Of a DNA stretch of 64,000 nt, positions 20,901-56,969 are shown one piece after another; position 1 is the stretch's first letter; each line of letters starts with the position of its first letter. Origin of the DNA: Naegleria gruberi. Taxonomy: Eukaryota. The stretch lies in NCBI GenBank assembly GCA_000004985.1, contig GG738861.1. One strand, written 5' to 3'. Below the pieces are notes generated by a model. The model did not search any database, had not been told where the DNA came from, and worked only from the letters and a program-made list of their open reading frames with translations. The position numbers and the translations under genes were made by a program.

Positions 20901-21244
20901 TCTCGTTAATAATATGAAAAAGATTAGTTTGATAGGAGACGGTTATGTGATTGTGACTGAAACAACTCCGAAAGTGTCTAATTTGTGGAAATAAACACCA
21001 TTCGAGTCATTCGAGCTCGTAAACCCATGAAGTATAATTTCTGTCTATTATTATTGTATTACATTACGAATCACCACAACATTGAAAAAACACAAAAGAA
21101 TTCACTAAGAGAGCTCAAAATATCTGACATTGCGTTCCTTTCATTTTGGATTTACCTACCGGATAAGTTATAAAAATCGTTTTGGGATCACATATCATGA
21201 ATTTCGTGTCATTGTGAAAATTCTACTATCAAGTCTCATAAAAA

Positions 21245-21584
21245 ATGTTTCCACAACAAGCTCCACGGATTGTGGTAGAGATAAAACTTGGTAACACAGT
21301 TGCTCAATTGTTTCCAGATGGTAGCTTGAGTAATGGTTCAACCAGTATTACTGATTTCAGCGCAGTTGCACTAAACAAGCAAAACAAGCAAGTATGGGGG
21401 TTTGAAAATGACAAAGTTAAAATATTGTGCAATCAAAACCACGTTTGTAGTTATGGTCAAGTCAACCACTTGATAACAGGCAAGGGATTAAATAGGCTTC
21501 GTTCTCTTTACAATCTCGTAATAACAAAATATCTCCAACAACAGCCAAACATCACCGTTCCCAGAACCAATGCTGGTGACACCA
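21245..21584 (+). CDS. 5' part of a hypothetical protein (runs into the gap)
   Basis: ATG preceded by AAAAA, then 113 open codons up to the 1021-N gap. No recognisable domain. Confidence 0.4.
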
Positions 21585-22605
21585 NNNNNNNNNNNNNNNN
21601 NNNNNNNNNNNNNNNNNNNNNNNNNNNNNNNNNNNNNNNNNNNNNNNNNNNNNNNNNNNNNNNNNNNNNNNNNNNNNNNNNNNNNNNNNNNNNNNNNNNN
21701 NNNNNNNNNNNNNNNNNNNNNNNNNNNNNNNNNNNNNNNNNNNNNNNNNNNNNNNNNNNNNNNNNNNNNNNNNNNNNNNNNNNNNNNNNNNNNNNNNNNN
21801 NNNNNNNNNNNNNNNNNNNNNNNNNNNNNNNNNNNNNNNNNNNNNNNNNNNNNNNNNNNNNNNNNNNNNNNNNNNNNNNNNNNNNNNNNNNNNNNNNNNN
21901 NNNNNNNNNNNNNNNNNNNNNNNNNNNNNNNNNNNNNNNNNNNNNNNNNNNNNNNNNNNNNNNNNNNNNNNNNNNNNNNNNNNNNNNNNNNNNNNNNNNN
22001 NNNNNNNNNNNNNNNNNNNNNNNNNNNNNNNNNNNNNNNNNNNNNNNNNNNNNNNNNNNNNNNNNNNNNNNNNNNNNNNNNNNNNNNNNNNNNNNNNNNN
22101 NNNNNNNNNNNNNNNNNNNNNNNNNNNNNNNNNNNNNNNNNNNNNNNNNNNNNNNNNNNNNNNNNNNNNNNNNNNNNNNNNNNNNNNNNNNNNNNNNNNN
22201 NNNNNNNNNNNNNNNNNNNNNNNNNNNNNNNNNNNNNNNNNNNNNNNNNNNNNNNNNNNNNNNNNNNNNNNNNNNNNNNNNNNNNNNNNNNNNNNNNNNN
22301 NNNNNNNNNNNNNNNNNNNNNNNNNNNNNNNNNNNNNNNNNNNNNNNNNNNNNNNNNNNNNNNNNNNNNNNNNNNNNNNNNNNNNNNNNNNNNNNNNNNN
22401 NNNNNNNNNNNNNNNNNNNNNNNNNNNNNNNNNNNNNNNNNNNNNNNNNNNNNNNNNNNNNNNNNNNNNNNNNNNNNNNNNNNNNNNNNNNNNNNNNNNN
22501 NNNNNNNNNNNNNNNNNNNNNNNNNNNNNNNNNNNNNNNNNNNNNNNNNNNNNNNNNNNNNNNNNNNNNNNNNNNNNNNNNNNNNNNNNNNNNNNNNNNN
22601 NNNNN
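21585..22605. other. Assembly gap (1021 N)
   Basis: Run of n. The three long X-filled ORFs in the track are artefacts of this gap. Confidence 1.
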
Positions 22606-22721
22606 ATAAGAGATTGGAGTAAGAGGTATCCGAAGGTTTGCAATACCAAACTCATTTAATGGTTTTGTGAAATAATAAAATTATTATTATTCGGGTCTCT
22701 TCAAAAAAAAATCCTTTACAA

Positions 22722-23475
22722 TGTTATTAGCACCAGAGCCTGCTAAACCTCAGGATGATTGGTTTATTGATGAATGTTTACTTATGAATATTGGCAATCA
22801 ACGACCGAAATATATCTTTCAAACTAAAGAGGGAGATGACATCATTTGGGAAACATTGTTCTTTAATTTCGTTGATGAGCCAAACGTTTAAATATCAAAC
22901 TCTTTCAATGATGGATACAATTACAAAAGATACACAGCAGAGGTGGTGGAAGTGGGAGACTTTGCCAAGAAAAGGGACGACTCTAATGATTGGGCTTTGT
23001 TGAGACTTGTGACTGATGATTTCACAGAAGATTTGAACAATACAGAGTACTTCATTCCTTCTCCAATTAGAACACGTCAAAGACGAAGATGATATTCCAG
23101 ATATCTACACCACGTTAATGATTGGTTTCTTTACAAGAGGTGCCTCAAAAGGAGATCTAAGAGAAACTCAAAGGGAATTGATATTGAAGATGTTTGGAAA
23201 ATTATTCCTGAAGGTATGGCAGTTTCCTTTGGTTGGACTGTACCCTATCCATAATTGTGGAAGTACAGCCAGCTGCTCTGGAGGCCCTTTACTCAAATGT
23301 AGAATCCAAATTAAAGAGCTTGTAGATATTCTGAACCAAAAACCATCTGTTCAGCCTTATTTCCTTATTCGCAAGTAGTTTCATCTCTAGAAGAATCATG
23401 GCTCTCCACAGTGGTGGTGATAACTATTACAAAATAAATAGAAATCCAAAACTTGAAATATTTAAGAGAAATTAG
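22722..23475 (+). CDS. Possible trypsin-like serine peptidase, fragmented (several short introns or a pseudogene)
   Basis: Pieces in different frames carry chymotrypsin-fold hallmarks: DDSNDWALLRL (Asp-102 region), NCGSTASCSGGPLL (Ser-195 region) and MALHSGGDNYY. Plausible GT-AG introns lie between them, but I could not build a complete model. The His region is probably lost in the upstream gap. Confidence 0.3.
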
Positions 23476-23571
23476 AGCTTGGAATTTTCCAAAAGCAAAA
23501 GCAGATAATTGATTGAAATAAGTACTATGAAATATTGAATGAAGTGTTTATATCGATATTAGTATGGATTT

Positions 23572-26500
23572 TTAAAGCATTAACAAGCACATCATGATTG
23601 AAACCAGTAAGGAAACACTGAACGAAATCATTGCAACGTTGTTGACACGAGCTGAAACCTTTGGAATAAAAGGAGCAGGAGAAGATTTTGGAGAGACAAC
23701 AGGTGTTGGAATAGCCTTTGGTTGAGCAGTTAACAAATATTTGCCAGTTGAAGAGACAGAAACAGTTACAGAGTTACTGGTCTTGGAAATGACTGAACAA
23801 CTGGTTGAGAGTTGATAATTATTGGTTGCTGAATTGTAAACTTGACAATAGACATCATATGCAGAAACCGATCTTGCCATTGTTATATCCTTTGAGGTAG
23901 AGAAGGTCAATTCGGCAATAGAACTTGAACTAGAAACGGTAACTGCAGATTTTTCAGCAAGAGAAATATCAAGAGCATCTGAAACAGAGTTGGTGACTCC
24001 GCCACTTGATGATTTTACCTTAAGAATGAGAGTCTTGTAATTAGAAACAAGATCAGAAAATTTAGCTGCCATTTTGAACTTATTTCCATTAATAATATCT
24101 TGTAAATTATTCAAAGTTGCAATATTGACCTTTCTTGAATAAGTAGTTGTTTGATTAGCAACAATATAGTTGGCTGGAAGGTCAGCAACTGTATCCTTAA
24201 CGAGAGCGCTTGATAAACTGTCATACGTAGCTTGAATATTAGTAATATCAGAATTGGAGAATGATCTCTTTGAAACACCCTTTGCTACAATAAATCTATA
24301 GAATTTATCAGCAGCTTCCTTCGCCTTTGTCAACAGTTCAGTAGCCAATTTAACTTCATCACTCGAAGCAGCATTAGCAGCAGTTTGAGCAAGATTGGTG
24401 ATCATCTTGGAAATAATGTCATCGACAATATATTCCAAACTTGAAGTACCAGAAGAAATCATTGACAATTTAGAGGAGGCAGAGTTAGTATTTTCAGAAG
24501 CAACAGATTGAGCCTTTGCTTGATTGTCCAAATAGGAAAGAATCATATTGGAAGTCAATTTTGCAATTTCAGCTTTTTGCTCAGCAGTTGCACCAGCAAT
24601 AGAGCTAACAACCTTAATGACAGCAGATACGGAAGCAAGGGTTGGTGTTTCCTTCGCAGTTGATTCAATAGAATTCACTGCTTGAGTGGTAGTTGGTTGA
24701 GTAACAGCTACAGAAATTTCAGATTCTGTAAATGCCAACTTGGAATCATAAACTGCAACTTTAAGACGGAGTTGAGAACTGCTTGAAGAAGGTAATTTGA
24801 TTCTTGTAGATCTAGTTTCAGTTCTCTCCGTCAATGCAGTCCAAGAGGATGAAATGTCATCATAATAGAAGAATTGATAGGTAAGTGGCAACTGAGAGTC
24901 TGTCCAACCATTTCCACATTTCAATTCGAATAAGGTACTGAGAGCAACACCAGATTGTGGACTAGCTTCGAAAATACCTCTTGTTGGAGGAGAGTTTACA
25001 TTAACACTTGTTGTAGCAACACCATTCTTTGAACCATCAGTAATATTCAAACTAATAGAGTATGAAGCGCCAGCACTCAACAATGATTTTGGAATCTTGA
25101 TAAAGCTGGAAGTTTGGGTGAGTGATGATAAATCAAACTTATCAGAGAACCAGAAGAAGGTTGGAGATGATAAAACTTCAAGAGAGGAATAGGTCAAATA
25201 CAAATCAGATGATGGGCTAACAAGTGAAAGATCGCTATTAGAAGTAATTGAAGCTCTAATCAAAGTATTCTTTGGAACGGACTTAGCTTTAACAATTAAA
25301 TTAGTTGATGCAGATCTTGATCCCTTAACAACAGTAGCAGTATACTTGTATTCACCAGCAGAGAGGAATGTGGAGAAGGTTCTTTGATTTAAATTTGGAG
25401 AAGAACATGACTTAATGTTGACAATATCAAAACATGTGATAGTGACAGTTTCTGAATCAGACGTACTACTTGGATCAACAACTGCAACAGAGAAATCCAA
25501 TGAATCTTGAGTTGATTGAGTAATGTCAGAAATGTTGAATTGAATAGTCAAATCTTGAGCTACAGCAGTTACCTTGAAAGGAAGAAATGCATCGTTAGCA
25601 TTGTCAGAAACAGCCCTAAGGATAAAGTAATAATCGCCTTCCTTATTAATATCAGTGAAGGATTTACCAATAGCGAATAAATTATTACTAGATTTTGGAG
25701 TTACAACTGATTTAGAGGCTGAAGAAGTATCAACAGAATAGGTATAATCAGTTTGATAATTTCCAGAATAACACTTTGGGAATTTGATGACTGGTGTCAA
25801 TACAATAGTAGATCCAATCATGTAAGTCACAGAAATACCTTCACTGAGTGATAGAGTTGGAACTGGATTGCTAACAACATTCACGGTAACACTTGATGTG
25901 GCAACTTTAGAGAATGCAGTTGTGACAGTAACTTGAATAATGAATGATCCACCAGAAATTGCACTCAATGAAGAGGAGCTGAAATCGACAATAGCGCTTG
26001 AAGTTTTAACACCACTCAAGTAAGTATTCAAAGCATTCATTTCACCAACAGTTGGACCGTTAGTGACATACCAAGAGAATAACAATGCACGACGATCTGA
26101 TGAAACTGATCCAGAAGCATCCAAATATAGAGTATCACACTTGGAAACAGAGCTCTTATCAGAAACTAGATTAACACTTGGAGGAAGTGCAACAAATGTA
26201 CCAGAAGAAACTGTAACAGACAATGTTTCAGCGCTTCCTGGGAATTTGAATAATCTCAAAGAATTACCTGGTACAATATTTGCACTGGTTCCTAATATAA
26301 TTTCCAAAGAGGAAGTTGCAGAATTCAAAATACATTTAGCATCAGAACCTATCAATGATAAATCAGAGCTAGAAATGACATCTGAACAATCTGATTGTTT
26401 CAATAAACTTGATTTGACTTCACCAATAATTGACCCACCAGTTGAAGTGAAAACAAAACTATTAGAATTAATTTGGAAATCACAATTGCTTCCAAACCAT

Positions 26501-28425
26501 CCATTCAAACACTTGGCACAATTACTGGAAGCATCAAAGTTTCCATAACAAGTACATGAGCCATCATTATTACAGTAACCTTTAGAGGAACAATTACTAA
26601 CACTATTACAAGTAATTGAGCAACTGGAACCAACAAATCCACTAGCACATTGATCACAATATGTACCAACAAAGTTACCTTCACAAACACATTTCAAATT
26701 AACACAATTACCTCTGGAATTACAAGTTTGAACTCTATCACAAACTGGAGTGTTACAATTAGCTCCTGAATAATCAAGTGAGCAGCTTGAACAAGATTTA
26801 CCATCATTGTAATTAATTGGACATGAACACTTATTAGGAGCTGAACAAATACCACGAGATGAACAAACACTAGAGCTTGACTTGTCAATTCCATAACAGC
26901 TAAACGTTTGACAAGCTGTACCATTATAACCTTCAGAACAATGACAGATATTTGGAGCAATACATGAACCCTTTCCAGAACAAACTCTATTATCGGTAGC
27001 ACTAATTTCAAAACAAACGGGAATATCACAATTATCACCAACAAAACCATCAACACATTTAGAACAAAACTTGGATGAATCAAAGTTACCATTACAAGAA
27101 CAAACATCCTTTGAAACACATGAACCTCTATACGAACATCCTCCTTGAGATTCACTCAATCCATTACAAGTAGTGTATTGACATCTATCACCAGTGTAAC
27201 CACTATTACATTCACAAGTATTTGGGGCAGTACAATTACCTTGTTTGTTACAACCAGATGTACCTGTTTGATTGTTACAAAGTGGAATAGTACAATCACT
27301 ACCAGTATATCCACTACCACAAACCATAACACTACACTGAGAACCAGTAAAACCTGGATAACAATCACATTGATCTTTTCCTATACATTTACCCTTACTT
27401 GAACAAACAGATGAAGAATTACTCAAAGTATTAAAACATCTTGTTTCAGAACAAGATGGACCTTCCCAACCACTCTTACATGAACATTGATTTAGTGATG
27501 AACAGTTACCATTAGATGAACAAACACTTGATTGATTGGCCAAAATACCAAAACATGAAGTAATTTCACACAACTTGCCATAGAATCCACTATTACATTG
27601 GCAAGTATTTGGACCAACACATTGACCATTTCTTGAACAAACAGTTTGATTGGAGTTGGTTAAACCAGAACAAGAATATGTTTGACATTCAGAACCAATG
27701 TAACCACTCTTACATAAACAGCTATCAACAGAAACACAAGTTCCTGATCCAGAACAAACAGATGAATCAGTAAAATTCTTTCCAAAACATTGATGAATCT
27801 GGCATTCTAATCCACTGTATCCATTATTACATTGACACATATCTTGAGAAATACAAGTACCTTGATTACAAGCTTCAGCTCTTGGCTTAGTGAAACATGT
27901 GATATTCTTTGAGACACAAGTATTTGGAGCAATACATGTATCGTATTGTCCACAGGATTGAGTTTCGTTAGCCAAATAATTATTGCAAATTGGCATGTTA
28001 CAAACACCAGCAGGTCCATAACCTGATTTACATTCGCACTTGTCAAAATCACTGCAGATACCTTTCGAAAAACAAACTTGAGGTGATTGAGAATCGATGC
28101 CATTACAAGTTGTAAAAGAACAATTGTCTCCGTGGTAATTTGTTGAGCAGATACAATCATCGAGACTAGAACATGAACCATGGGATGAACAAACCTTGGA
28201 ATCGTTAGCTGGAGTACCATAACAGGAAGGAATTTCACAGAATTTTCCAATAAATCCATTAACACATATACAACCGCCATCCAGACATGTTCCATTACCA
28301 TTACAGATATTTTCCAAATGAGTAGATCCACATTTAACTGGTTCTGGTTGTGGGGTTTCCGTTGTTGTTTCATTACAGAATGTTCCATTGATATTTGAGT
28401 TACAAATACAGACACCGTTCAACAA
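23572..28425 (-). CDS. C-terminal 1617 codons of a giant EGF / PKD-REJ-like surface protein with a GPI-signal-like hydrophobic end
   Basis: Long ORF. EGF modules are followed by YLDASGSVSSDRRALLFSWYV (PKD/REJ-like), a long Ser/Thr-rich region and the C-terminus VAMISFSVSLLVSIMMCLLML. The first residues (NGVCICNSNINGTFCNETT) continue the repeat of the upstream ORF, so the M at 28425 is not a real start. Confidence 0.8.
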   Translation of the reverse strand: MLNGVCICNSNINGTFCNETTTETPQPEPVKCGSTHLENICNGNGTCLDGGCICVNGFIGKFCEIPSCYGTPANDSKVCSSHGSCSSLDDCICSTNYHGDNCSFTTCNGIDSQSPQVCFSKGICSDFDKCECKSGYGPAGVCNMPICNNYLANETQSCGQYDTCIAPNTCVSKNITCFTKPRAEACNQGTCISQDMCQCNNGYSGLECQIHQCFGKNFTDSSVCSGSGTCVSVDSCLCKSGYIGSECQTYSCSGLTNSNQTVCSRNGQCVGPNTCQCNSGFYGKLCEITSCFGILANQSSVCSSNGNCSSLNQCSCKSGWEGPSCSETRCFNTLSNSSSVCSSKGKCIGKDQCDCYPGFTGSQCSVMVCGSGYTGSDCTIPLCNNQTGTSGCNKQGNCTAPNTCECNSGYTGDRCQYTTCNGLSESQGGCSYRGSCVSKDVCSCNGNFDSSKFCSKCVDGFVGDNCDIPVCFEISATDNRVCSGKGSCIAPNICHCSEGYNGTACQTFSCYGIDKSSSSVCSSRGICSAPNKCSCPINYNDGKSCSSCSLDYSGANCNTPVCDRVQTCNSRGNCVNLKCVCEGNFVGTYCDQCASGFVGSSCSITCNSVSNCSSKGYCNNDGSCTCYGNFDASSNCAKCLNGWFGSNCDFQINSNSFVFTSTGGSIIGEVKSSLLKQSDCSDVISSSDLSLIGSDAKCILNSATSSLEIILGTSANIVPGNSLRLFKFPGSAETLSVTVSSGTFVALPPSVNLVSDKSSVSKCDTLYLDASGSVSSDRRALLFSWYVTNGPTVGEMNALNTYLSGVKTSSAIVDFSSSSLSAISGGSFIIQVTVTTAFSKVATSSVTVNVVSNPVPTLSLSEGISVTYMIGSTIVLTPVIKFPKCYSGNYQTDYTYSVDTSSASKSVVTPKSSNNLFAIGKSFTDINKEGDYYFILRAVSDNANDAFLPFKVTAVAQDLTIQFNISDITQSTQDSLDFSVAVVDPSSTSDSETVTITCFDIVNIKSCSSPNLNQRTFSTFLSAGEYKYTATVVKGSRSASTNLIVKAKSVPKNTLIRASITSNSDLSLVSPSSDLYLTYSSLEVLSSPTFFWFSDKFDLSSLTQTSSFIKIPKSLLSAGASYSISLNITDGSKNGVATTSVNVNSPPTRGIFEASPQSGVALSTLFELKCGNGWTDSQLPLTYQFFYYDDISSSWTALTERTETRSTRIKLPSSSSSQLRLKVAVYDSKLAFTESEISVAVTQPTTTQAVNSIESTAKETPTLASVSAVIKVVSSIAGATAEQKAEIAKLTSNMILSYLDNQAKAQSVASENTNSASSKLSMISSGTSSLEYIVDDIISKMITNLAQTAANAASSDEVKLATELLTKAKEAADKFYRFIVAKGVSKRSFSNSDITNIQATYDSLSSALVKDTVADLPANYIVANQTTTYSRKVNIATLNNLQDIINGNKFKMAAKFSDLVSNYKTLILKVKSSSGGVTNSVSDALDISLAEKSAVTVSSSSSIAELTFSTSKDITMARSVSAYDVYCQVYNSATNNYQLSTSCSVISKTSNSVTVSVSSTGKYLLTAQPKAIPTPVVSPKSSPAPFIPKVSARVNNVAMISFSVSLLVSIMMCLLML

Positions 28426-28509
28426 GTTCCATTATAATAGCAATTATTTTCTTCAACGGTTGATCCACAGTTTAATTGGTTCAGTGGAACAGAGTATTCT
28501 GGTGTGCTT

Positions 28510-31428
28510 TCATTGCAAATGTTCCGTTAACGTTGTATTGCAAATACAAATACCATTTACACATGTTCCGTTACCATAACAGGCATTTTCTTCCAATGTT
28601 TCACCACATTTAATTGGTTCAGGATGTGGGATAACTGGTTCTGTATTTGTTTCATTGCAATATGTACCATTAATGTTTGAATTACAAATACAGACACCAT
28701 TAATGCAAGTACCATTTCCATAACAAATATTTTCATATTCAGTGATACCACATTTAACAACTGGTTCTGGTTGAGGTGTTGGAGTTTCAGAAGTCTCATT
28801 ACAGAAGGTTCCATTAACGTTTGTATTACAAATACAAATACCATTTACGCATGTTCCATTTCCATAACAATTATTTTCCTCAATGGTTGTTCCACATTTA
28901 ATTGGTTCAGGTTGTGGAATTATTGGTTCAACAATGGTTTCATTACAGAAAGTACCGTTTGAGCCACCTAAACATGAACAAATACCATTCAAACAAGTTC
29001 CATTTCCATAACAATTATTTTCTTCAACGGTTGATCCACATTTAATTGGTTCAGGTTGGGGAATTGGAGTTTCTGGAGTTGTTTCATTACAGAATGTTCC
29101 GTTTACATTAGAGTTGCAAATACAAATACCATTTACACATGTTCCGTTACCATAACAGGCATTTTCTTCCAATGTTTCACCACATTTAATTGGTTCAGGA
29201 TGTGGAGTAACAGGTGCTGATGTTGTTTCATTACAATATGTACCATTAATGTTTGAATTACAAATACAGACACCATTCAAACAAGTTCCATTTCCATAAC
29301 AATTATTCTCATCTTCAGTGAAACCACATTTAACAACAGGTTCTGGTTGAGGCTCATGACTTGTTTCATTACAGAAGGTTCCATTAACGTTGGTAATACA
29401 AACACAAATACCATTCATGCAAGTTCCATTTCCATAACAATTATTTTCTTCAATGGTTGATCCACATTTAACTGGTTCAGTTGGAATTTGAGGTTCTGAA
29501 GCAGTTGTTTCATTACAGTATGTTCCGTTCATACCCTCAACACAGATGCACAATCCATCAAGACATGTGCCGTTACCATAACAATTGCTTTCTTCCTGAG
29601 TTGTACCACAAATAATTGGTTCAGGTTGTGGAGAATCAGAATTTGTTTCATTGCAATATGTACCATTTACGTTTGAATTACAAGCACAGACACCATTGAT
29701 GCAAGTTCCATTTCCGTAACAGTTGTTTTCTTCCATGGTTGATCCACATTTAACTGGTTCAGGATGAGGAATTGGAGTTTCAGGAGTTGTTTCATTACAG
29801 AATGTTCCGTTTACCTTTGAATCACAAACACAAATACCATTTAAACAGGTTCCATTACCGTAACAGTTATTTTCTTCCAATGTTTCACCACATTTGACAG
29901 GTTCTGGTTCTGGAGTAACTGGTTCTGTAGTTGTTTCATTGCAGAATGTGCCATTAACATTCTCAAAACATACACACAAGCCATCAACACAAGTACCATT
30001 TCCAAAACAGTTATTTTCTTCTTCGGTCGAACCACATTTAACTACTGGTTCTGGTTGAGTTGGATCTTGAGTTGTTTCGTTACAGAATGTACCATTCACG
30101 CCAATAAAACAAATACAAACACCCTCAATGCATGTACCGTTACCATAACAAGTATTTTCTTCTATAGTTTCACCACATTTGACAGGCTCAGGAACAACTG
30201 GATCTGGAGATGTTTCGTTACAGAATGTACCATTAATATTCTCGTTGCAAACACACAAACCATCAACACATGTTCCATTTCCGTAGCAGCTATTTTCTTC
30301 TGTTGTTTCGCCACATTTAATTGGTTGAGTTGGAACTTGAGGTTCAGTAGGATTAGTTTCGTTACAGAATGTACCATTAACATCTTGATTACAAACACAG
30401 AATCCATTTACACAACTTCCATTGTTGTAGCAATTATTCTCTTCCAAAGTTTCACCACATTGTAAAGGTTGTGGAATTTCAGGTTCTATATTTGATTCAT
30501 TACAGAATGTACCATTTGCGCCTTCTTTGCAAATACAGGAGCCACCAATACAAGTGCCATTACCATAGCAGTTATTTTCATCTTCTGTAAAACCACATTT
30601 AACTGGCTCTGGTTGAGTTGGGATTTCAGGAGCTGTTTCGTTACAGAAAGTACCATTAGCGCCTTCAATACAAACACACAGTCCATCAAGACATGTTCCA
30701 TTACCATAACAATTACTTTCTTCCTGAGTTGTACCACAAATAATTGGTTCAGGTTGGCTGGGAACTGGACTGGTTTCGTTACAGAATGTACCATTACTAC
30801 CTTCATTGCAAGTACAAAAACCATTCTCACACGTACCATTGCCATAACAATTATTCTCTTCTTCTGTAGTACCACATTTAACCAATTCTGGTTGTGGTTC
30901 CATGCTGAAGGTTTCATTACAAAATGTACCATTAACATTCTCGTTACAAATACACAAACCATCGACACATGTACCATTACCATAACAAATATTTTCATCT
31001 TCTGTGAAACCACAGTTAACTGGTTGAGTAGGGACTTGTGGTTCTTGAGTTGTTTCATTACAGAATGTACCATTCACACCTTCAATACATATGCAGAAAC
31101 CATCGACACATGTACCATTACCATAACAATTTTGTTCTTCCAATGTTTCACCACAAGTGGTAATGGTATCATTACAGAATAAACCAATGAAACCTTCTGA
31201 ACATTGACAAACACCACGAGTACAATTACCATTAGAATAGCAAGATTGTTCATCTAATGTTTCACCACAGAAAACATCCTGACATTCCATTGTACCCAAG
31301 AGGTCACATGTCTGGGACAATAAACATTCAGTGTCTGAACTGCATGTTGCTGATACGAGACCAACAGCAGCAATTACAGAAAGTACAATTAAAAGTATTG
31401 TTGTTTTGAACAGCAAGTTACTTGCCAT
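28510..31428 (-). CDS. N-terminal 972 codons of the same gene: signal peptide plus about 20 tandem 41-48-aa EGF-like modules with Pro/Thr/Glu linkers
   Basis: MASNLLFKTTILLIVLSVIAAVGLVSA is a signal peptide. The reiterated unit is KCGxTxEENNCYGNGTCxxGxCxCxxxVNGTFCNETT + PxPxPEPV. The frame ends inside a degenerate unit at about 28510. Confidence 0.8.
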   Translation of the reverse strand: MASNLLFKTTILLIVLSVIAAVGLVSATCSSDTECLLSQTCDLLGTMECQDVFCGETLDEQSCYSNGNCTRGVCQCSEGFIGLFCNDTITTCGETLEEQNCYGNGTCVDGFCICIEGVNGTFCNETTQEPQVPTQPVNCGFTEDENICYGNGTCVDGLCICNENVNGTFCNETFSMEPQPELVKCGTTEEENNCYGNGTCENGFCTCNEGSNGTFCNETSPVPSQPEPIICGTTQEESNCYGNGTCLDGLCVCIEGANGTFCNETAPEIPTQPEPVKCGFTEDENNCYGNGTCIGGSCICKEGANGTFCNESNIEPEIPQPLQCGETLEENNCYNNGSCVNGFCVCNQDVNGTFCNETNPTEPQVPTQPIKCGETTEENSCYGNGTCVDGLCVCNENINGTFCNETSPDPVVPEPVKCGETIEENTCYGNGTCIEGVCICFIGVNGTFCNETTQDPTQPEPVVKCGSTEEENNCFGNGTCVDGLCVCFENVNGTFCNETTTEPVTPEPEPVKCGETLEENNCYGNGTCLNGICVCDSKVNGTFCNETTPETPIPHPEPVKCGSTMEENNCYGNGTCINGVCACNSNVNGTYCNETNSDSPQPEPIICGTTQEESNCYGNGTCLDGLCICVEGMNGTYCNETTASEPQIPTEPVKCGSTIEENNCYGNGTCMNGICVCITNVNGTFCNETSHEPQPEPVVKCGFTEDENNCYGNGTCLNGVCICNSNINGTYCNETTSAPVTPHPEPIKCGETLEENACYGNGTCVNGICICNSNVNGTFCNETTPETPIPQPEPIKCGSTVEENNCYGNGTCLNGICSCLGGSNGTFCNETIVEPIIPQPEPIKCGTTIEENNCYGNGTCVNGICICNTNVNGTFCNETSETPTPQPEPVVKCGITEYENICYGNGTCINGVCICNSNINGTYCNETNTEPVIPHPEPIKCGETLEENACYGNGTCVNGICICNTTLTEHLQ

Positions 31429-32610: not shown

Positions 32611-32751
32611 ATTGCCCTATCATCATTGCAATAATATAATTAATGAAAGACTTCCAATACGGCCCAAACCATTTGCACCACCCAAACAATCAAGTTTGCG
32701 ATTGAAAGATTTTCAAGTTTGCGATTGACTCTTCAACACATAAAGTAAAGT

Positions 32752-34310
32752 ATTCAGATTGATTTTAATTTTACATAATAGTTTTATTACAAACAAGTTT
32801 TTGTTGTTTGTTTGGGAGAATTGAATTGTTTCAAAATCAATAGATTTAGAAACACTTTCTGTGGACAATACCTGGACCGGCATCCTCATATTCTTCCTTG
32901 GTGATCCACATTTGTTGGAAAGTGGACAATGAAGCCAAGATGGAACCACCAATCCAGACAGAGTACTTTCTTTCAGGTGGAGCAACAACCTTAATCTTCA
33001 TGGAAGCTGGAGCCATAGCAGTCAATTCCTTGGTCATTCTTTCAGCAATACCTTCGAACATAGTAGTACCACCAGACAAGACAACGTTACCGTACAAGTC
33101 CTTTCTGATATCAATATCACATTTACCAATAGAGTTGAAAGTAGTTTCATGAACACCAGCAGCTTCCATACCAATGAAGTTTGGTTGGAACAAAACTTCT
33201 GGACATCTGAATCTTTCATTACCAACAGTGATAACATTACCGTCTGGCAATTCGTATGACTTTTCAACAGATGATGATTCAGCAGCAACCTTCATTTCAG
33301 CTTCGAAATCCAAAGCAATATAACAGAGCTTTTCCTTAATATCTCTGACGATTTCTCTTTCAGCAGTAGTATTGAATGAGTAACCTCTTTCCATCAAAAT
33401 CTTCATCAAGTAATCAGTCAAATCACGGCCAGCCAAATCCAATCTCAAAATGGCGTGTGGCAAAGCATAACCTTCATAAATTGGAACAGTGTGGGAAACA
33501 CCATCACCAGAGTCCAAAACAATACCAGTGGTTCTACCAGAAGCATACAAGGACAAGACAGCTTGAATAGCGACATACATAGCTGGAACTGAGAAGGTTT
33601 CAAACATAATTTGAGTCATCTTTTCTCTGTTTGCCTTTGGATTCAAAGGAGCTTCAGTCAACAAGACTGGGTGTTCTTCTGGAGCAACTCTCAATTCATT
33701 GTAGAAAGTGTGATGCCAGATCTTTTCCATATCGTCCCAATTGGTAACAATACCGTGTTCAATTGGATACTTCAAAGTCAAAATACCTCTCTTTGATTGA
33801 GCTTCATCACCAACATAGGCATCCTTATTACCCATACCAACCATAATGGACTTTTGCTTTGGTCTACCAATAATTGAAGGGAAGACAGCTCTTGGAGCAT
33901 CATCACCAGCAAAACCAGCTTTACACATACCAGAACCGTTATCGACAACGAGGGCTTGAACGTCTTCACAGAATGACATTTTATAGATTATTTGAATGGA
34001 TTTGTTTTTTTTGATTTTTAATTGATGATTTGTGTGTTAAAAAAATATTTAAATGAAAAATTAATGAAAGAATGATTGATGTGATTGATGGCAAGTCAAA
34101 TTGAAGTTTTAAAAAACTATTTTAGAGGTCATTTTTTAAATGTGGAAAGTCAAGTGAAGAAGAACAACTTTACAATATGACTTTTCATTCTTTTCATTCA
34201 ACACATCATCAAAATTACTAGCAATCAACTGTAAAATTTAACACATCAAACATTGCTTTGTCAACTTACTGTAATTTTCAACGTGGAAAAAATTCATCAA
34301 GTTTGAATGA
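32752..34310. repeat. Left arm of the actin inverted duplication
   Basis: Reverse complement aligns with 40167-41707 across the CDS, about 330 bp of 5' flank and about 95 bp of 3' flank. Confidence 0.9.
32846..33979 (-). CDS. Actin (conventional, 377 aa), intronless
   Basis: Full-length ORF with canonical actin sequence throughout ([23 protein letters not shown] ... [40 protein letters not shown]). Confidence 0.97.
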
Positions 34311-38180: not shown

Positions 38181-38627
38181 AATCTCACCGACACGGAATT
38201 CACTAGACAAGTTTTCATTATTTTATGAAACAGAAAGGATAACCTTCTTAATGTTTCAAAAGATGCTAATCAAATAATTGGAAATGTTATAATCTATCAA
38301 CATTTCATTCTGTGGATCATCTTCTGAAATTCTGAATTGAATAGCAATGGAGCTTTGTTTAAAAGATAACTTGATAAGATTTGTTAATTAATTATAATTT
38401 ACAATTTTTCATGACTAACGTAATTCTCAACAATAACATACCAATTTGAAATTTGGTAAAACTGCAAATAGAATATTTTATTGGAAAGAAAAATAAAGGA
38501 GTCTAACCTTTGACTATTTTCTCGATGGAATTAGGAGATAAGGTTTTGAAAATTGGCAGATATGTTGATTACATACCAGTCTTCATATTATGAAAAAAAT
38601 TTTAAATTAAATAGTGAAGATAAAGTT

Positions 38628-38632
38628 AAAAA
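38628..38632 (-). terminator. Pol III terminator (T5) downstream of the tRNA-Asp 3' fragment
   Basis: In minus-strand sense: ...CACTCGA G ATTAATTTTTAAC. Confidence 0.6.
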
Positions 38633-38637
38633 TTAAT

Positions 38638-39092
38638 CTCGAGTGCCGGGAATTGAATTTCCTAATTTGGAAGATGACTTCAACAACCAAATAACAATAA
38701 TAAATTGGGTTATTAAATTAATGTTTATTAAATAGTGACCGTTAGGTCACTGATTGTTAATTAATTATTGATGATGATTTGTTGTTGAACAGATACTAAC
38801 CACCACCGATTGTTGTCATAATATTAAACACAGAGTAATCACCGTGTCGCCAAATTCCTTGATAATTATTCATAACTGTAACTTCTTGATCAAAAGGCAC
38901 TCGAGCAATAAACAATTTGATTTCACACAGCCAAAACTCTCGTTCATACTTTGGGTACCGGGAATGAAATTTCCAAATAAGGAATGACCGATATCATTCA
39001 ACTATTACTAACTCATACTCACACTAACAAAACAAATTGAACCCGGGTCGCCAGAGTGACAGTCTGGAATGCTACCACTATACCACACCCGA
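38638..39092 (-). tRNA. tRNA-Asp(GUC) gene split in the T-loop by a 377-bp insertion
   Basis: 5' part, 39092->39035: TCGGGTGTGGTATAGTGGTAGCATTCCAGACTGTCACTCTGGCGACCCGGGTTCAATT (A box, anticodon loop CTGTCAC). 3' part, 38657->38638: TTCAATTCCCGGCACTCGAG. Joining them at the duplicated TTCAATT gives a 71-nt cloverleaf with a 7-bp acceptor stem (one G-U) and the T stem CCGGG/CCCGG. Confidence 0.85.
38658..39034. mobile_element. Insertion in the T-loop of tRNA-Asp (377 bp, non-coding)
   Basis: Flanked by a direct TTCAATT on both sides. Its ends are homologous to those of the tRNA-Gly insertion. It contains the pseudo-T-arm motif GGAAATTTCATTCCCGGTACCCAA (38952-38980, minus sense) and the hairpin AGTGACC-GTTA-GGTCACT (38734-38751). 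Confidence 0.7.
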
Positions 39093-40166
39093 TTTCATAT
39101 TAAGTGATAAATATTATTGAATATATAGACGTATTTTCAACAATTTTAAATAATTCTACCAACACCAATCCTGTGGTGAGATCCAGTTTCAAACCCTTTT
39201 AAAGGCATCCATTGCCCATCAGTAATTATAAACGAGTTGATCTCACAATAGTTCCTCGGACAATATTCCAATTTCCTTCAACACGTATTCTTCTTCCAAT
39301 CTCTCAAGCCTTTCCATAAATTGCAATACAATAATGATTCAGAAGTATGAATAAATTCAATAGTATCACATTTACATATAGTACATTTAGAACATGATCA
39401 GCACAGCCATTAGTTTCCCAAATTCCACTCTCTGAAAATCTTAAAGATTCAGTACTATCAGTCTCGTGTAGAAATTAACAAGAATACTGTGATAATTCAT
39501 TCACTCACAGAATTCAATTCAGTAGGTGAAAAGACAGGAAAGTTAATTTGATCTACCTTAAAATTGGTTTCCATCTTTGTCTAGAATATCACCTTAATTC
39601 ATTGAACAAGGGAATTTTCTAGAATATACATGTTAACTTTGCAAGAGCTTATTTCAAAAGATCAACTCTTGACACAAGTGGAAAATTAATCAACTCAAAT
39701 TAACAATGCTGTTCAATCACTGATGTCAAATATTAAAGGGTTCATCCCTATCCCCAATTACTATTCTCTTAAAATCACATAACTTTATCCAAAATGATTT
39801 CCAGTGTTTTCCCTTCTTCATTCCAGAATTAACTGAAGAAATATCATCCACTCAACTAATCATCTCAATAATACATGTGTTTATCTCAAATTATAATGTA
39901 AATATATCCACAGCACACAATGTTGCAACTTGAATTGATTGGAAGAGTAGAGTCACTTTGGGATGATTAAATTTGTTGTAGCCTCTCCACTAAATGTTAA
40001 ACCAACAACAACAATAATACCATCCAATGATAATCAACAATTGACGGCCCTCCAACTAGAAAGGGACAAGAAATAACGATGTGATATTACTATCAATATG
40101 TATGTGGTGGGAATTGTGTGAGCAGATGCAAGAATATTGTAGATGAAGGTTTTCTATTTTTTATCA

Positions 40167-41707
40167 AACTTGATGAATTTTTTCCATGTTGAAAATTACA
40201 GTAAGTTGTTAATTGCAATGTTTGCTGATTGTTTGCTCGTAATGTTTGATGATGTGTTGAATGAAAATAATGAAAAGTCATATTGTAAAGTTGTTCTTCT
40301 TCACTTGACTTTCCACATTTAAAAAATGACCTCTAAAATAGTTTTTTAAACTTCAATTTGACTTGCCATCAATCACATCAATCATTCTATCATTAATTTT
40401 TCATTTAAATATTTTTTTAACACACAAATCATCAATTAAAAATCAAAAAAAAACAAATCCATTCAAATTCTATAAAAATGTCATTCTGTGAAGACGTTCA
40501 AGCCCTCGTTGTCGATAACGGTTCTGGTATGTGTAAAGCTGGTTTTGCTGGTGATGATGCTCCAAGAGCTGTCTTCCCTTCAATTATTGGTAGACCAAAG
40601 CAAAAGTCCATTATGGTTGGTATGGGTAATAAGGATGCCTATGTTGGTGATGAAGCTCAATCCAAGAGAGGTATTTTAACTTTGAAGTATCCAATTGAAC
40701 ACGGTATTGTTACCAATTGGGATGATATGGAAAAGATCTGGCATCACACTTTCTACAATGAATTGAGAGTTGCTCCAGAAGAACATCCAGTCTTGTTGAC
40801 TGAAGCTCCTTTGAATCCAAAGGCCAATAGAGAAAAGATGACTCAAATTATGTTTGAAACTTTCTCAGTTCCAGCTATGTACGTCGCTATTCAAGCTGTC
40901 TTGTCCTTGTATGCTTCTGGTAGAACTACTGGTATTGTTTTGGACTCTGGTGATGGTGTTTCCCACACTGTTCCTATCTATGAAGGTTATGCTTTGCCAC
41001 ACGCCATCTTGAGATTGGATTTGGCTGGTCGTGATTTGACTGATTATTTGATGAAGATTTTGATGGAAAGAGGTTATTCATTCAATACTACTGCTGAAAG
41101 AGAAATTGTCAGAGATATTAAGGAAAAGCTCTGTTATATTGCTTTGGATTTCGAAGCTGAAATGAAGGTTGCTGCTGAATCATCATCAGTTGAAAAGTCA
41201 TACGAATTGCCAGATGGTAATGTTATCACTGTTGGTAACGAAAGATTCAGATGTCCAGAAGTCTTGTTCCAACCAAACTTCATTGGTATGGAAGCTGCTG
41301 GTGTTCATGAAACTACTTTCAACTCCATTGGTAAATGTGATATTGACATCAGAAAGGACTTGTACGGTAACGTTGTCTTGTCTGGTGGTACTACTATGTT
41401 CGAAGGTATTGCTGAAAGAATGACCAAGGAATTGACTGCTATGGCTCCTGCTTCAATGAAGATTAAGGTTGTTGCTCCACCTGAAAGAAAGTACTCTGTC
41501 TGGATTGGTGGTTCCATCTTGGCTTCATTGTCCACTTTCCAACAAATGTGGATCACAAAGGAAGAATATGAGGATGCCGGTCCAGGTATTGTTCACAGAA
41601 AGTGTTTCTAAATCTATTGATTTTGAAACAATTCAATTCTCCCAAACAAACAACAAAAACTTGTTTGTAATAAAACTATTATGTAAAATTAAAATCAATC
41701 TGAATAC
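40167..41707. repeat. Right arm of the actin inverted duplication
   Basis: See the left arm (32752-34310). Confidence 0.9.
40478..41611 (+). CDS. Actin (conventional, 377 aa), intronless; protein identical to the 32846-33979 copy
   Basis: The ORF translation is identical residue for residue to the other copy. The nucleotide differences I counted are all third-position and synonymous. Confidence 0.97.
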
Positions 41708-42004
41708 TTTTTGTGTTGCGAAAGAGAAATTGAAATCTTTAACAAACTTCGAATAGGTTCAAAGTTATTATAGACAAAACTTGGAAATGAACTAAATTAA
41801 TCTTCCCTTAAATCAAAAAGATTCTCATTTACTCTCAAGCCCTTAAATAGTCATCATCAACATGTTGACTCTCTCTCGAATATTCGTCATCACCAACAGC
41901 ACGGAAGTTTAGGATGACGCACAAAAAGATATTATTCGTAAATAATGTACTTATGAATAAAATATATTTGGATCTATTCAAAAGGATCTAAAATAGAAAA
42001 AAAA

Positions 42005-55237: not shown

Positions 55238-55241
55238 AAAA
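55238..55241 (-). terminator. Pol III terminator (T4) downstream of the tRNA-Gly 3' fragment
   Basis: In minus-strand sense: ...TCGACGCA AACCAGTTACTTTTCTT. Confidence 0.55.
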
Positions 55242-55271
55242 GTAACTGGTTTGCGTCGACCGGGAATTGAA

Positions 55272-56605
55272 ATTTCCTTTTTTGGAATTCATTTAACTTT
55301 TAATTTTATGATGAAATTATGAATTATTTATTTTAATATTATTCATGATGTGAAACATCATGTTGAATTCTGTTCATTATTTTTAATTCATGATGTGAAA
55401 CATCATGTTGAATTATTAACAAATGTTGTTCTTCAATTTTTCATTGAATGTTGTTCTTTCAATGAATGTTGGAATAAGTGTCCAGTATATGATAGAATTG
55501 TTAATACAAGTAAGTTTTCTATTATTTTATATTTATTAATTGACTCACGGGTAATGGAATTTCCTTTTTTGTAAATCATCATGATTGATGATGATTGATG
55601 ATGATTAAATAATAATAATTTATTATTTTATAGATGATGGTACAATTAGATTTGTTAGTACATATCCTAATTGTATTTTAAAGAAAGAAAATTCACCAAC
55701 TAAAATTGAAGATATTATTCGTGAATATGAAGATGTAAAAGTTGTTTTAAATGAATTAGGTAAATCAACAACAAAAATTTATTCATCAGATACAACAAAA
55801 CATATGAATTTCCTAAAAGTTTTATTTATTTATGTAATGGTAATATTAAATATGATCAATCATTAAATATATCACAAGGAATTTATACAATTAAAATTCA
55901 AGATGATGAACATGATCACAAATATTATTATTTATTCGGAAGAGGTTTATTATTTCTATCAATTACATTACAAATGATTCCAACATTTAGTTTAAACAAG
56001 TATTATTATGAAATTGTATTGAATGATTTAAGTAACACATATTTTGATAAGAATGAAATTATTCAATATAAAATTGAAATTTTGCCATCAAATATTATTC
56101 AACAATATTCTAAACGAAAGTTTCTTGTTAGAAAAGATAGTCAAAAGAACTCAAGATTTATTACATATCAACCTGACGCTCAATCACCATCAAAGAAAAC
56201 AAAGAAGAATAACATTATTGAAAGTGATATTGAAGATTTCGATTGCAATATTAAAGATATTGATGATTGGGTATAGGGAAACGGAATTTCCTAATTGGGA
56301 ATGTCATCACACAATAAATTAAATTTATTATTTATTCATTGATGTTCACAAACTGTGAATTAACACATTACATGATGAAACAATTCAAACATTTACTCAA
56401 ACTTTAAACATTAACCATCGGGTAACGGATTTTAATACATGTACTAGTATGTTTATTAATTGGTCGACGCACATAAATTTAAATAAACAAAATTAACAAG
56501 ATTTTAAACAAAATCCTACATAGAGTTGGAGAACGGGAAATGAAATTCCCAAATTGAAATTGAGAAACAACTATTCATTTCACAATAATTCATACTATCA
56601 AAATG
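55272..56605. mobile_element. Compound insertion in the T-loop of tRNA-Gly (1334 bp)
   Basis: Flanked by a direct TTCAATT. The 56277-56605 part is homologous to the whole tRNA-Asp insertion. Extra copies of the pseudo-T-arm motif start at about 55546, 56274, 56416 and 56530. It contains AT-rich open frames on the plus strand. Confidence 0.7.
55764..56276 (+). CDS. Longest open frame inside the tRNA-Gly insertion (171 codons, first ATG at 55974); function unknown
   Basis: Open frame ...LCNGNIKYDQSLNISQGIYTIKIQDDEHDHKYYYLFGRG...KKTKKNNIIESDIEDFDCNIKDIDDWV. A possible upstream exon at 55634-55759 follows a GTAAGT...TAG intron at 55510-55633. No transposase, integrase or RT motif is recognisable. 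Confidence 0.25.
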   Translation: MNNKNLFIRYNKTYEFPKSFIYLCNGNIKYDQSLNISQGIYTIKIQDDEHDHKYYYLFGRGLLFLSITLQMIPTFSLNKYYYEIVLNDLSNTYFDKNEIIQYKIEILPSNIIQQYSKRKFLVRKDSQKNSRFITYQPDAQSPSKKTKKNNIIESDIEDFDCNIKDIDDWV

Positions 56606-56969
56606 AATTGAACCCGGGTCACGGCGATGGCAACGCCGTATTCTACCACTAAACCATCGACGCTTCTTGTTAAGATATTAAGGTTCCTTAATTTAATATA
56701 AGGAATATCCAAAATGCTTAAAGTACAACACAACAAGAATTGAGTATTCGTTTGAACATGCTGTAAAATATTTCAAATTATGCTAAGATCATTTGATGTA
56801 TTTAATGCCATAGGGCATTGAGAGCCATCATTTGAAGATTCAAATAGTATGTTCTTGATTTTATCTGATAAAGCACAAGAATAACATTTCATCCACTAAA
56901 TTTTATAAATGTTGACTGTGTTACATAATAGTATTTAATTATTATTGAAATGAGGATAACAATAAATTA

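Follow-up and report, generated by a model that had tools for sequence, protein, structure and literature searches.

Related insertions at the same T-loop position of two Naegleria gruberi tRNA genes, pointing to a T-arm-specific element family

Two tRNA genes divided at the T-loop

The window, the whole 64,000-nt stretch of Naegleria gruberi contig GG738861.1 (assembly GCA_000004985.1) analysed here, carries a tRNA-Gly(GCC) gene and a tRNA-Asp(GTC) gene on its minus strand, each of which is divided into a 5' part and a 3' part by an insertion. The features of the two loci are as follows.

56663..56606, minus strand: tRNA-Gly(GCC) 5' part, 58 nt, standard positions 1-60, ending in CCGGGTTCAATT
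56612..56606, minus strand: left T-loop copy TTCAATT at the Gly locus, the final 7 nt of the 5' part
55272..56605, minus strand: Gly insertion, 1334 bp
55271..55252, minus strand: tRNA-Gly 3' part, TTCAATTCCCGGTCGACGCA, with the right T-loop copy at 55271..55265
55241..55238, minus strand: T4 run, 10 nt beyond the Gly 3' part
39092..39035, minus strand: tRNA-Asp(GTC) 5' part, ending in CCGGGTTCAATT
38658..39034, minus strand: Asp insertion, 377 bp
38657..38638, minus strand: tRNA-Asp 3' part, TTCAATTCCCGGCACTCGAG
38632..38628, minus strand: T5 run after the Asp 3' part

The geometry of the two loci is identical, with a perfect 7-bp TTCAATT repeat at both junctions of each (at the Gly locus it reads AATTGAA on the plus strand, at 55265-55271 and 56606-56612). 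The duplicated heptamer is exactly the 7-nt T-loop, and at both loci it lies between the 5-bp inverted T-stem arms CCGGG/CCCGG; the interrupted T-arm of both genes is CCGGG-TTCAATT-CCCGG (CCGGGTTCAATTCCCGG), and the insertion point is the same T-loop position in tRNA-Asp and in tRNA-Gly (n = 2 loci). Within the window TTCAATTCCCGG was counted twice against an expectation of 0.25, a number attained in 0 of 100 shuffles. The T-arm is among the most conserved of tRNA sequences and overlaps the B box of the RNA polymerase III promoter. The initial annotation had described a Gly gene split by a 1334-bp insertion, with TTCAATT duplicated and with the geometry of the Asp gene, and every one of these features is present in the sequence. 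It had also placed both breaks after the same nucleotide: the position is indeed the same, but the target is a symmetric site, made up of the T-loop and the 5-bp inverted repeat of the T-stem, rather than a mere point after one nucleotide.

Excising each insertion together with one TTCAATT copy gave a 71-nt tRNA with a perfect cloverleaf, identified by ARAGORN as Gly-gcc and Asp-gtc, respectively. When the unedited window was analysed, ARAGORN called the Gly 5' part only, which reached 21.2 bits against Rfam (cut-off 29), and Rfam at its gathering score detected no tRNA anywhere in the window. Relaxing the Rfam threshold revealed no additional tRNA-like pieces within either insertion, and no other B-box-like tRNA remnant was found in the window. 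tRNA finders miss split genes of this kind, which distorts tRNA gene counts in Naegleria genomes.

At both loci the left junction of the insertion into the tRNA continues with YRTTTTG, whose T4 run starts three bases past the break (insertion bases 3-6 in the Gly gene). Transcription by RNA polymerase III should end at this run, leaving the genes dead. We considered whether the two genes might still function as split or intron-containing tRNA genes whose insertion is removed from the RNA; the halves carry no substitution and their acceptor ends are able to pair. This reading is nevertheless very improbable given the T4 run 3 nt past the break at both loci and the runs of at least four T on the tRNA-sense strand, which number in all 3 in the Asp insertion and 14 in the Gly insertion. 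Moreover, introns do not feature a 7-nt duplication, the break lies in the T-loop and outside position 37/38, the fold contains no cloverleaf and has no significant stability (z = -1.8), and the 3' part is without a promoter of its own. Intron-containing, split and permuted tRNA genes combine a junction at 37/38 or a bulge-helix-bulge, unduplicated exons and transcribability by RNA polymerase III, and this combination is not displayed by the two loci.

Shared ends and composite structure of the insertions

In the sense of the tRNA, the Asp insertion consists of a left module M, a decamer, a body and a right end, and the Gly insertion consists of module M, a host-specific decamer, unit B1, an ORF-bearing unit and a last unit. 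Apart from the decamers, their components are listed below.

56474..56605, minus strand: Gly left module M, 132 nt, starting CATTTTGATAGTATGA, containing fossil junction u1 and homologous to the Asp module
56534..56550, minus strand: Gly fossil junction u1, GGGAATTTCATTTCCCG (right-end-like, then loop-like heptamer, then T-stem-like)
56419..56433, minus strand: u2, a weaker junction-like motif, AAAATCCGTTACCCG
56275..56291, minus strand: fossil junction u3, GGAAATTCCGTTTCCCT, boundary between unit B1 and the ORF-bearing unit
55609..56276, plus strand: orphan ORF, about 235 aa, interrupted by one frameshift and occupying nearly all of unit 55565-56274
55548..55564, minus strand: fossil junction u4, GGAAATTCCATTACCCG, boundary between the ORF-bearing unit and the last unit
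55272..55547, minus strand: last unit of the Gly array, ending in TTCCAAAAAAGGAAAT next to the T-loop
39034..38908, minus strand: Asp left module M, containing fossil junction u1 at 38958-38974
38672..38658, minus strand: Asp right end, TTCCAAATTAGGAAA

Judged by their sequences, the two insertions are demonstrably related. They have in common a left module of about 130 nt, with the landmark sequences YRTTTTGWTAGTRTGA ... TTTGGRAATTTCATT, and a right end of about 15 nt (TTCCAAAWWAGGAAA). The alignment of the Gly and Asp left modules gave z = 8.4, a score reached by 0 of 500 shuffles, and the right-end/junction motif aligns over six copies. The ends of the element are GGAAA(T) and CAAAAYR, without a tail. 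A junction-like motif of GGAAA, loop and CCCG is almost confined to the two insertions: when up to 4 mismatches were allowed, just three sites were found outside them in the whole window, each with 4 mismatches. The initial annotation had argued from the shared breakpoint for targeted rather than random insertion, and the same 7-bp duplication at both loci, joined to this relatedness of left modules and right ends, supports that argument.

No terminal inverted repeats were detected in either insertion, and neither holds a second copy of the left module or a long terminal repeat pair. The Gly insertion contains a 29-nt subterminal inverted repeat (76% identity) that is without an Asp counterpart; target-like motifs are present in the insertions, but in direct orientation. 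RNA folds of the left modules were not significant (|z| below 1). Brief similarities of the Asp insertion to tRNA-Asp were set aside, as they were at about chance level by a rough estimate.

The 1.3-kb length initially given for the Gly insertion stands, but the insertion is not a single element: it is an array of about four units in one orientation. The right-end motif closes every unit and is followed by a loop-like heptamer and a T-stem/acceptor-like stretch, and three 32-nt junction repeats all have the same orientation. The internal loop-like heptamers TTTCATT, TTCCGTT and TTCCATT differ from TTCAATT, which argues against recent hits in place as the sole origin of the array. The last unit holds a perfect 29-nt hairpin duplication (55341-55369 and 55386-55414).

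The last 100 aa of the orphan ORF (55974-56276) are identical to N. gruberi NAEGRDRAFT_66102, and one cassette ORF is thus carried in the annotation as an ordinary N. gruberi gene. The ORF had no Pfam match, and a word-based protein search gave no homologues. A full HMMER search added no relatives beyond the identical N. gruberi protein and a 44-aa remnant on an ENA metagenome contig (L088); the predicted structure has a pLDDT of 31. Contig L088 is a rearranged relative of the Gly array, in which the internal junctions of the array are kept at 89-94% identity and u3 is conserved in both orientations. It bears a duplicated inverted segment whose breakpoints are not within the cores. The existence of this independent relative indicates that the array is real and heritable rather than an assembly artefact.

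That the split genes are assembly chimeras or chance look-alikes is therefore extremely improbable. Chimerism at both loci, which the initial annotation named as one part of what would overturn its reading, is contradicted by the 100-aa identity with a protein of the N. gruberi reference annotation and by the same junctions on an independent metagenome contig. The perfect cloverleaf restored in both genes and the single geometry of two loci likewise speak against chimeras and look-alikes, and no evidence in support of them was found.

An inverted copy of the host tRNA 3' end

At 127-132 nt from its left end, each insertion repeats positions 64-73 of the tRNA that it interrupts, as an exact reverse complement.

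56462..56473, plus strand: Gly decamer GGTCGACGCA followed by CA, sense copy of tRNA-Gly 64-73, inverted relative to the split gene, 10/10
38896..38907, plus strand: Asp decamer GGCACTCGAG followed by CA, sense copy of tRNA-Asp 64-73, inverted relative to the split gene, 10/10

Such a match has p of about 0.0015 per locus, and the distance is the same in both. The inverted copy runs exactly from the discriminator base N73 to G64 at both loci, and TG precedes it in both despite an indel in the neighbouring module. The Asp decamer is the complement of the 3' strand (TCGAGTG) and not a copy of the 5' acceptor strand (TCGGGTG); it was thus made by copying. A host-matched inverted decamer has no place in plain cut-and-paste transposition, and simple insertion gives no account of it; the initial annotation makes no mention of it. 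Several other origins were tried and dropped: hairpin opening of the P-nucleotide type, which does not suit arms separated by 250-1200 bp; template switching around the GTCGAC/CTCGAG palindromes, which would place the arms next to each other; homologous recombination of a hybrid cDNA, owing to an orientation conflict; and a guide like that of group II introns, which is at odds with the duplication, the size and the nuclear setting.

One way to account for the decamer is that the insertions are retroelements or captured cDNA, with a nicked T-loop or a tRNA priming reverse transcription. The 12 nt made up of TG and the reverse complement of 64-73 would then serve as a primer-binding site, or would record a switch of template to the host tRNA's 3' end, and the purine-rich right end would be a polypurine tract or tail. 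Several observations agree with this reading: the inverted copy begins at N73, the 3' end of the processed tRNA, and ends, preceded by TG, at G64 at both loci; its fixed distance from the left end is the size of an R-U5 region; and the right ends read AAAAAAGGAAA and AAATTAGGAAA. We nevertheless consider it unlikely. The window yielded no reverse transcriptase (RT) gene and the insertions no long terminal repeat pair, the primer-binding site should be TGG where TG is found, and the 7-bp duplication is atypical of LTR integrases and exceeds the 4-6 bp of LTR and TRIM elements. The elements lack a poly(A) or simple-repeat tail, their two ends are conserved where variable 5' truncation would be expected, and an extra assumption is needed for the primer tRNA to be of the same species as the target gene. 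Site-specific non-LTR retrotransposons (R2, NeSL, Utopia, Dewa) and their SINE-like partners have an RT/endonuclease ORF, or a 3' end in common with such an element, together with a tail; here neither an RT in the window nor a tail was found. The Mauriceville and Varkud retroplasmids of Neurospora, which are mitochondrial and encode their own RT, copy tRNA 3' ends by template switching. They resemble the present case in that a mobile element holds a short tRNA 3'-end copy taken from the processed end; here, in contrast, no RT was found and there is no full CCA copy.

More broadly, the target tRNA itself might join in integration, as primer or template for reverse transcription or as a guide to its own gene, an idea that we hold to be improbable. 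If it were true, the break in the T-loop would reflect the usable reach of the tRNA 3' end, and a eukaryotic mobile element would here be choosing its target through RNA, not through protein-DNA contact, with that choice rewritten at each new tRNA species. A host-matched 3'-end copy, if general, would bear on how such elements find their targets or prime their synthesis.

Candidate enzymes and known tRNA-gene elements

That a family of mobile elements inserted here site-specifically is very probable, irrespective of the enzyme involved. Our best explanation, to which we give, together with the enzyme model that follows, roughly even chances, is that the tRNA genes were inactivated by a family of short non-autonomous elements specific to the T-arm CCGGG-TTCAATT-CCCGG. 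The restored cloverleaves, the identical geometry, the homologous left modules, the common junction motif and the relative on contig L088 speak for it; against it, there are only two loci and one partial relative, and the enzyme class is a guess with no known autonomous copy. Neither the 20 largest window ORFs nor the ORF of the insertion gave a match to a transposase, recombinase or RT domain, and the copies are therefore read as non-autonomous; such copies would lack a transposase in any case. An enzyme provided in trans would bind both T-stem arms as symmetric half-sites and would cut or exchange strands 7 bp apart at the stem/loop boundaries, leaving the loop duplicated; the array could then have grown by repeated hits or by mobilisation of composites.

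By analogy, this enzyme may be a cut-and-paste (DDE-type) transposase that behaves like Dada and makes 7-bp staggered cuts, an assignment that we make tentatively and at somewhat less than even chances. Dada elements make 6-7 bp duplications, have no terminal inverted repeats, form tandem insertions, sometimes in several tRNA species, and carry a subterminal motif that recurs in the target (Kojima & Jurka 2013, PMC3706591; Kojima 2022, PMC8869645). The present insertions are alike in the fixed site in multicopy small RNA genes, tRNA-Asp and tRNA-Gly being among the Dada targets, and in the duplication length, found here at two loci, as well as in the lack of terminal inverted repeats and in the tandem insertions and internally deleted derivatives; the target-like motifs of the present insertions are in direct orientation, whereas Dada has subterminal inverted repeats of which one recurs in the target. 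They differ in their site, since the Dada sites known in tRNA genes are those around the anticodon and at the A box, the T-loop not being among them (PMC8869645). The hosts also differ, being animals, Perkinsus, a fungus and a brown alga for Dada and a heterolobosean here; no inverted copy of the host tRNA 3' end is reported for Dada, and the present elements are not tied to any Dada-type transposase.

A 7-bp core between inverted half-sites fits a tyrosine recombinase equally well. This is the textbook geometry of tyrosine-recombinase sites, and at both loci an identical short core, TTCAATT, lies between the perfect 5-bp inverted arms CCGGG and CCCGG. A circular element with a TTCAATT core would have recombined with the T-loop by means of an enzyme of the Crypton, DIRS-like or integrase type, the stems serving as inverted core-binding sites, and successive integrations at the tRNA-proximal junction would have produced a tandem cassette array. 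The integrative elements of bacterial and archaeal tRNA genes, which use tyrosine integrases, recombine within the T-loop in this way, with the 7-nt loop as crossover and the stems as inverted binding sites, and arrays of them build up in tandem at a single tRNA gene, their units separated by degenerate tRNA 3' fragments; Williams is said to have reported in 2002 that integrases favour the T-loop and the anticodon loop of tRNA genes. Consistent with such an origin, the array units have one orientation, a single ORF almost fills one cassette, and the units after the first begin with a mimic of the tRNA 3' part (T-stem 3' strand, 7 nt, A). The mimic at u1 has a T4 run about 12 nt on, as in elements that bring their own tRNA 3' end, and at the Asp locus this stretch (CCCGG TACCCAA A) could base-pair with 6 of the 7 positions of the Asp 5' acceptor strand. 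Furthermore, DIRS-like sequences have been reported in N. gruberi (PMC3266345).

We still rate integration by a tyrosine recombinase as rather unlikely. No gene for a recombinase was found in the window, though one could lie elsewhere in the genome, and the left junction, at which the element begins with YRTTTTG, does not restore the tRNA, 3'-part-like fossil stretches occurring only further inside. The inferred half-sites of the circle junction (GGAAA / YRTTTTG) are unlike the T-stem arms, the internal cores differ from TTCAATT, and the inverted duplicated segment of contig L088 breaks outside the cores. The bacterial and archaeal elements rebuild the tRNA gene and encode an integrase of their own; in Naegleria, by contrast, the insertion destroys the gene, the host is eukaryotic, the units are 60-700 bp long and no recombinase is present.

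The Dictyostelium elements TRE5, TRE3, DGLT-A and Skipper-2 and yeast Ty3 are guided by the RNA polymerase III machinery and insert at set distances upstream or downstream of a tRNA gene, leaving it intact (PMC5006619). Like the present elements, they land at tRNA genes in a compact protist genome, but they lie outside the gene, whereas the present elements lie inside it at a sequence-defined point. The shared breakpoint and the relatedness of the two insertions point to a previously undescribed tRNA-gene parasite that recognises the T-arm. Fixed-site mobile elements in small RNA genes are rare; they matter for genome evolution, as such genes are safe havens in compact genomes, and they offer starting points for targeted DNA insertion. 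With a family that recognises the T-arm, this group would gain both a target class and a eukaryotic lineage, Heterolobosea, that are new to it.

Our literature search brought up no report of insertions in Naegleria tRNA genes, nor of any in the T-loops of eukaryotic tRNA genes. A metagenome scan with the left junction CCGGGTTCAATTYRTTTTG gave 19 matches, 0 of them in a tRNA context, and scans of GTDB and IMG/VR with the right junction gave either nothing or bacterial matches in about the number estimated for chance. Synteny is absent in N. fowleri, where the corresponding locus is without a tRNA, and a contig of a close relative (L021) ends before reaching the Asp locus. Comparison of flanking proteins matched the N. 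gruberi protein NAEGRDRAFT_57673.

T-loop insertions in two tRNA genes

The initial annotation had described a tRNA-Gly(GCC) gene broken by an insertion into a 5' part and a 3' part followed by a T4 terminator, with a duplicated TTCAATT and the same geometry as the Asp gene. All of these features were confirmed.

Split tRNA genes and their insertions
56663..56606, minus strand: 5' part of tRNA-Gly(GCC), 58 nt, ending in CCGGGTTCAATT
55272-56605: Gly insertion, 1334 bp, between the two parts of tRNA-Gly
55271..55252, minus strand: 3' part of tRNA-Gly, 20 nt, TTCAATTCCCGGTCGACGCA, with TTTT ten bases beyond
39092..39035, minus strand: 5' part of tRNA-Asp(GTC)
38658-39034: Asp insertion, 377 bp, same layout as the Gly locus
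38657..38638, minus strand: 3' part of tRNA-Asp

The unedited window yielded no tRNA at or above the Rfam threshold. Deleting each insertion together with one TTCAATT copy left 71 nt and restored flawless Gly-gcc and Asp-gtc cloverleafs (ARAGORN). Within the window, TTCAATTCCCGG was confined to the two split loci (chance expectation 0.25). From the sequence and the cloverleafs, the duplicated heptamer corresponds exactly to the T-loop (positions 54-60) and is bordered by the T-stem arms CCGGG and CCCGG, 5 bp each. This makes the target a perfect symmetric site whose 7-bp spacer is duplicated in full. This layout would fit a symmetric enzyme pair on the two stem arms, with cutting or strand exchange at the stem/loop boundaries; an enzyme acting in trans would recognise these arms. 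At the start of both insertions a T4 run lies three bases past the break, and the tRNA-sense strand carries 3 (Asp) and 14 (Gly) runs of this type, suggesting that both split tRNA genes are dead under all mechanisms considered. A B-box-like GGTTAGACTCC was also seen on the tRNA-sense strand at 38498-38508, about 130 bp past the 3' end of tRNA-Asp; with one mismatch, such a match is at chance level for the window.

Kinship of the insertions and the Gly array

Described in tRNA-sense orientation, both insertions open with a homologous left module (127 nt in Asp, 132 nt in Gly); YRTTTTGWTAGTRTGA stands at its start, and AATAGTTG and TTTGGRAATTTCATT(T)CCCG lie further inside. The alignment of the two modules gave z = 8.4, a score reached by none of 500 shuffles. 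The right end, TTCCAAAWWAGGAAA(T), abuts the T-loop directly in both, and the bodies in between aligned no better than chance. Neither insertion has terminal inverted repeats or long terminal direct repeats, and the window's 20 largest ORFs yielded no domain of a transposase, a recombinase or a reverse transcriptase; both are therefore non-autonomous copies.

Both loci carry, at the true right junction, a motif made of the right end GGAAA, a loop-like stretch of 7 nt, NCCCK, about 7 further nt and A. Diverged copies, all motif copies sharing one orientation, were found within the insertions; when up to four mismatches were allowed across the 64 kb, three sites appeared outside them, each with four mismatches.

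Internal junction-like motifs
38958-38974: Asp insertion, u1, diverged
56534-56550: Gly insertion, u1, diverged
56419-56433: Gly insertion, u2, weaker
56275-56291: Gly insertion, u3, diverged
55548-55564: Gly insertion, u4, diverged

These junctions delimit, in the Gly insertion, the left module and units of about 240 bp, 710 bp and 276 bp. The internal heptamers TTTCATT, TTCCGTT and TTCCATT are not identical to the target TTCAATT, and the first internal junction is common to the Asp and Gly left modules. It follows that the composite, at least in part, was built elsewhere and transported as a block. The last Gly unit also holds a 29-nt sequence in two perfect copies 45 bp apart (55341-55369 and 55386-55414), each with a hairpin, CATGATG-TGAAA-CATCATG.

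One plus-strand ORF, about 235 codons long and with a single frameshift, takes up nearly all of the 710-bp unit (ORF region 55609-56276). Pfam gave no match for it, and protein searches recovered only two relatives, the identical N. gruberi annotation and a short (44-aa) metagenome sequence. The 100-aa ORF at 55974-56276 shares 100% identity with N. gruberi XP_002678484.1 / NAEGRDRAFT_66102, which looks like the tail of the longer frameshifted ORF. NAEGRDRAFT_66102 (100 aa) is listed as an ordinary gene in the N. gruberi reference annotation.

The 44-aa relative lies on a 559-bp contig from an ENA metagenome (L088), in which the ORF is shortened to this length. L088 and the Gly array are colinear, in the order last unit, u4, ORF unit, u3, next unit, u2, a host-type decamer (an inverted copy of tRNA positions 64-73) and the left-module start. 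Identity was 89-94% in four BLAST-aligned segments of 24-223 nt each and lower (65-80%) over the last unit, u4 and the u2 region; for scale, coding regions on a contig of a close relative share 86-96% with the window. L088 lacks about 520 bp of the ORF unit. Next to the decamer, the u3 region is duplicated in inverted orientation over 62 bp (202-264 and 436-497 of L088, 88% identity), the inverted copy abutting the TAATTGG ahead of the decamer. The decamer has one substitution; the five preceding bases, TAATT, are kept and a rearrangement breakpoint follows directly. The array is thus real and inherited; it is older than the divergence of two Naegleria lineages, and it is decaying. A metagenome scan with the junction pattern returned chance-level matches only, in DNA-searchable collections that hold almost no Naegleria sequence.

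Taken together, related non-autonomous elements inserted site-specifically into the T-loop, the loop was duplicated and arrays formed (two loci and one partial relative). The sequence-specific targeting proposed in the initial annotation thus holds, with related elements in the T-loop of two different tRNA genes.

Host-matched decamers and candidate mechanisms

Directly after the left module, 127 and 132 nt inward of the left junction, each insertion carries TG and then a stretch exactly reverse-complementary to positions 64-73 of the tRNA that it interrupts, beginning at both loci exactly at the discriminator base and stopping at G64.

Inverted decamers
56462, plus strand GGTCGACGCA: Gly decamer TGCGTCGACC, 10/10 match
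38896, plus strand GGCACTCGAG: Asp decamer CTCGAGTGCC, 10/10 match

A match of this length arose in only 0.14-0.16% of shuffled insertions. The Gly decamer is absent from the Asp insertion and vice versa, and within the window each is limited to its own tRNA 3' part and the inverted copy; none of the internal, fossil junctions has a similar inverted partner. The Asp decamer complements the 3' strand (A opposite T69), whereas the 5' strand has G4; it was thus copied from the 3' strand. We could not derive the decamer from a plain insertion model. It could be a sequence resembling a primer-binding site or a guide, or it could stem from a reverse transcriptase template jump onto the 3' end of a processed tRNA or from an integration event that duplicated the target 3' part in inverted orientation; a tRNA-templated decamer may mark a more unusual phenomenon. 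Insertion by a retro-mechanism is the only rival with a natural role for the decamer, but repeats, tail and reverse transcriptase are all missing.

We lean towards a DDE-type transposase that would make 7-bp staggered cuts, because the behaviour of the insertions matches that of Dada transposons. Dada elements produce 6-7 bp duplications, lack terminal inverted repeats and insert in tandem, within tRNA and snRNA genes and occasionally in several tRNA species (PMC3706591; PMC8869645). The Naegleria insertions likewise combine a 7-bp duplication, no terminal inverted repeats, a tandem array and a target inside the genes of more than one tRNA species; they lie in the T-loop, however, whereas published Dada sites are around the anticodon or at the A box (PMC8869645). 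Nearly as good a candidate is a tyrosine recombinase, since the target geometry is the classic core-site layout and the one-orientation units, each opening with a tRNA-3'-part-like stretch, resemble tandem islands at bacterial tRNA genes. Dictyostelid and yeast elements that target tRNA genes insert outside the gene (PMC5006619), unlike these insertions, which lie inside. In the literature searched, we found no paper that describes T-loop insertions in eukaryotic tRNA genes, nor one on elements of this kind in Naegleria. We therefore file the T-loop insertions with the target-specific elements of small RNA genes. The 3' acceptor regions of both targeted tRNAs also contain 6-bp palindromes, GTCGAC (Gly, 55252-55261) and CTCGAG (Asp, 38638-38647), with a joint chance estimated at roughly 1 in 100.

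Chromosomal setting

The window is nuclear Naegleria DNA of about 33% GC. At its very start (1-554) lie 92 tandem ACCCAA copies (98% matches), a telomere-type repeat; the window thus begins at a chromosome end, and both split tRNA genes are within 57 kb of it. A Beta-CASP ORF shares 80% identity with N. fowleri and 68% with Willaertia, and the gene adjoining the Gly locus has its match in N. gruberi NAEGRDRAFT_57673. With the 100% identity of the 100-aa ORF, this assigns the window to N. gruberi, to strain NEG-M or a nearly identical one. Very large ORFs that carry Teneurin-type EGF and REJ domains form a cluster (2770-31428), which includes a 2.8-kb array of coding tandem repeats of 138-426 bp (28289-31155) and an 883-bp duplicate (14989-15868 and 17747-18626, 96% identity). 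At 20000-24000, GC falls to 25-26% and long ORFs overlap on both strands (21245-22655); the sole ORF tested there, 21245-22609, had no Pfam match, and this stretch may be low-complexity or repeat DNA. The region with the split tRNA-Asp is bracketed by a 1.56-kb inverted duplication (32747-34306 and 40164-41710, 96.5% identity) that contains a pair of actin genes (32846-33979, minus strand; 40478-41611, plus strand) encoding 100% identical proteins.
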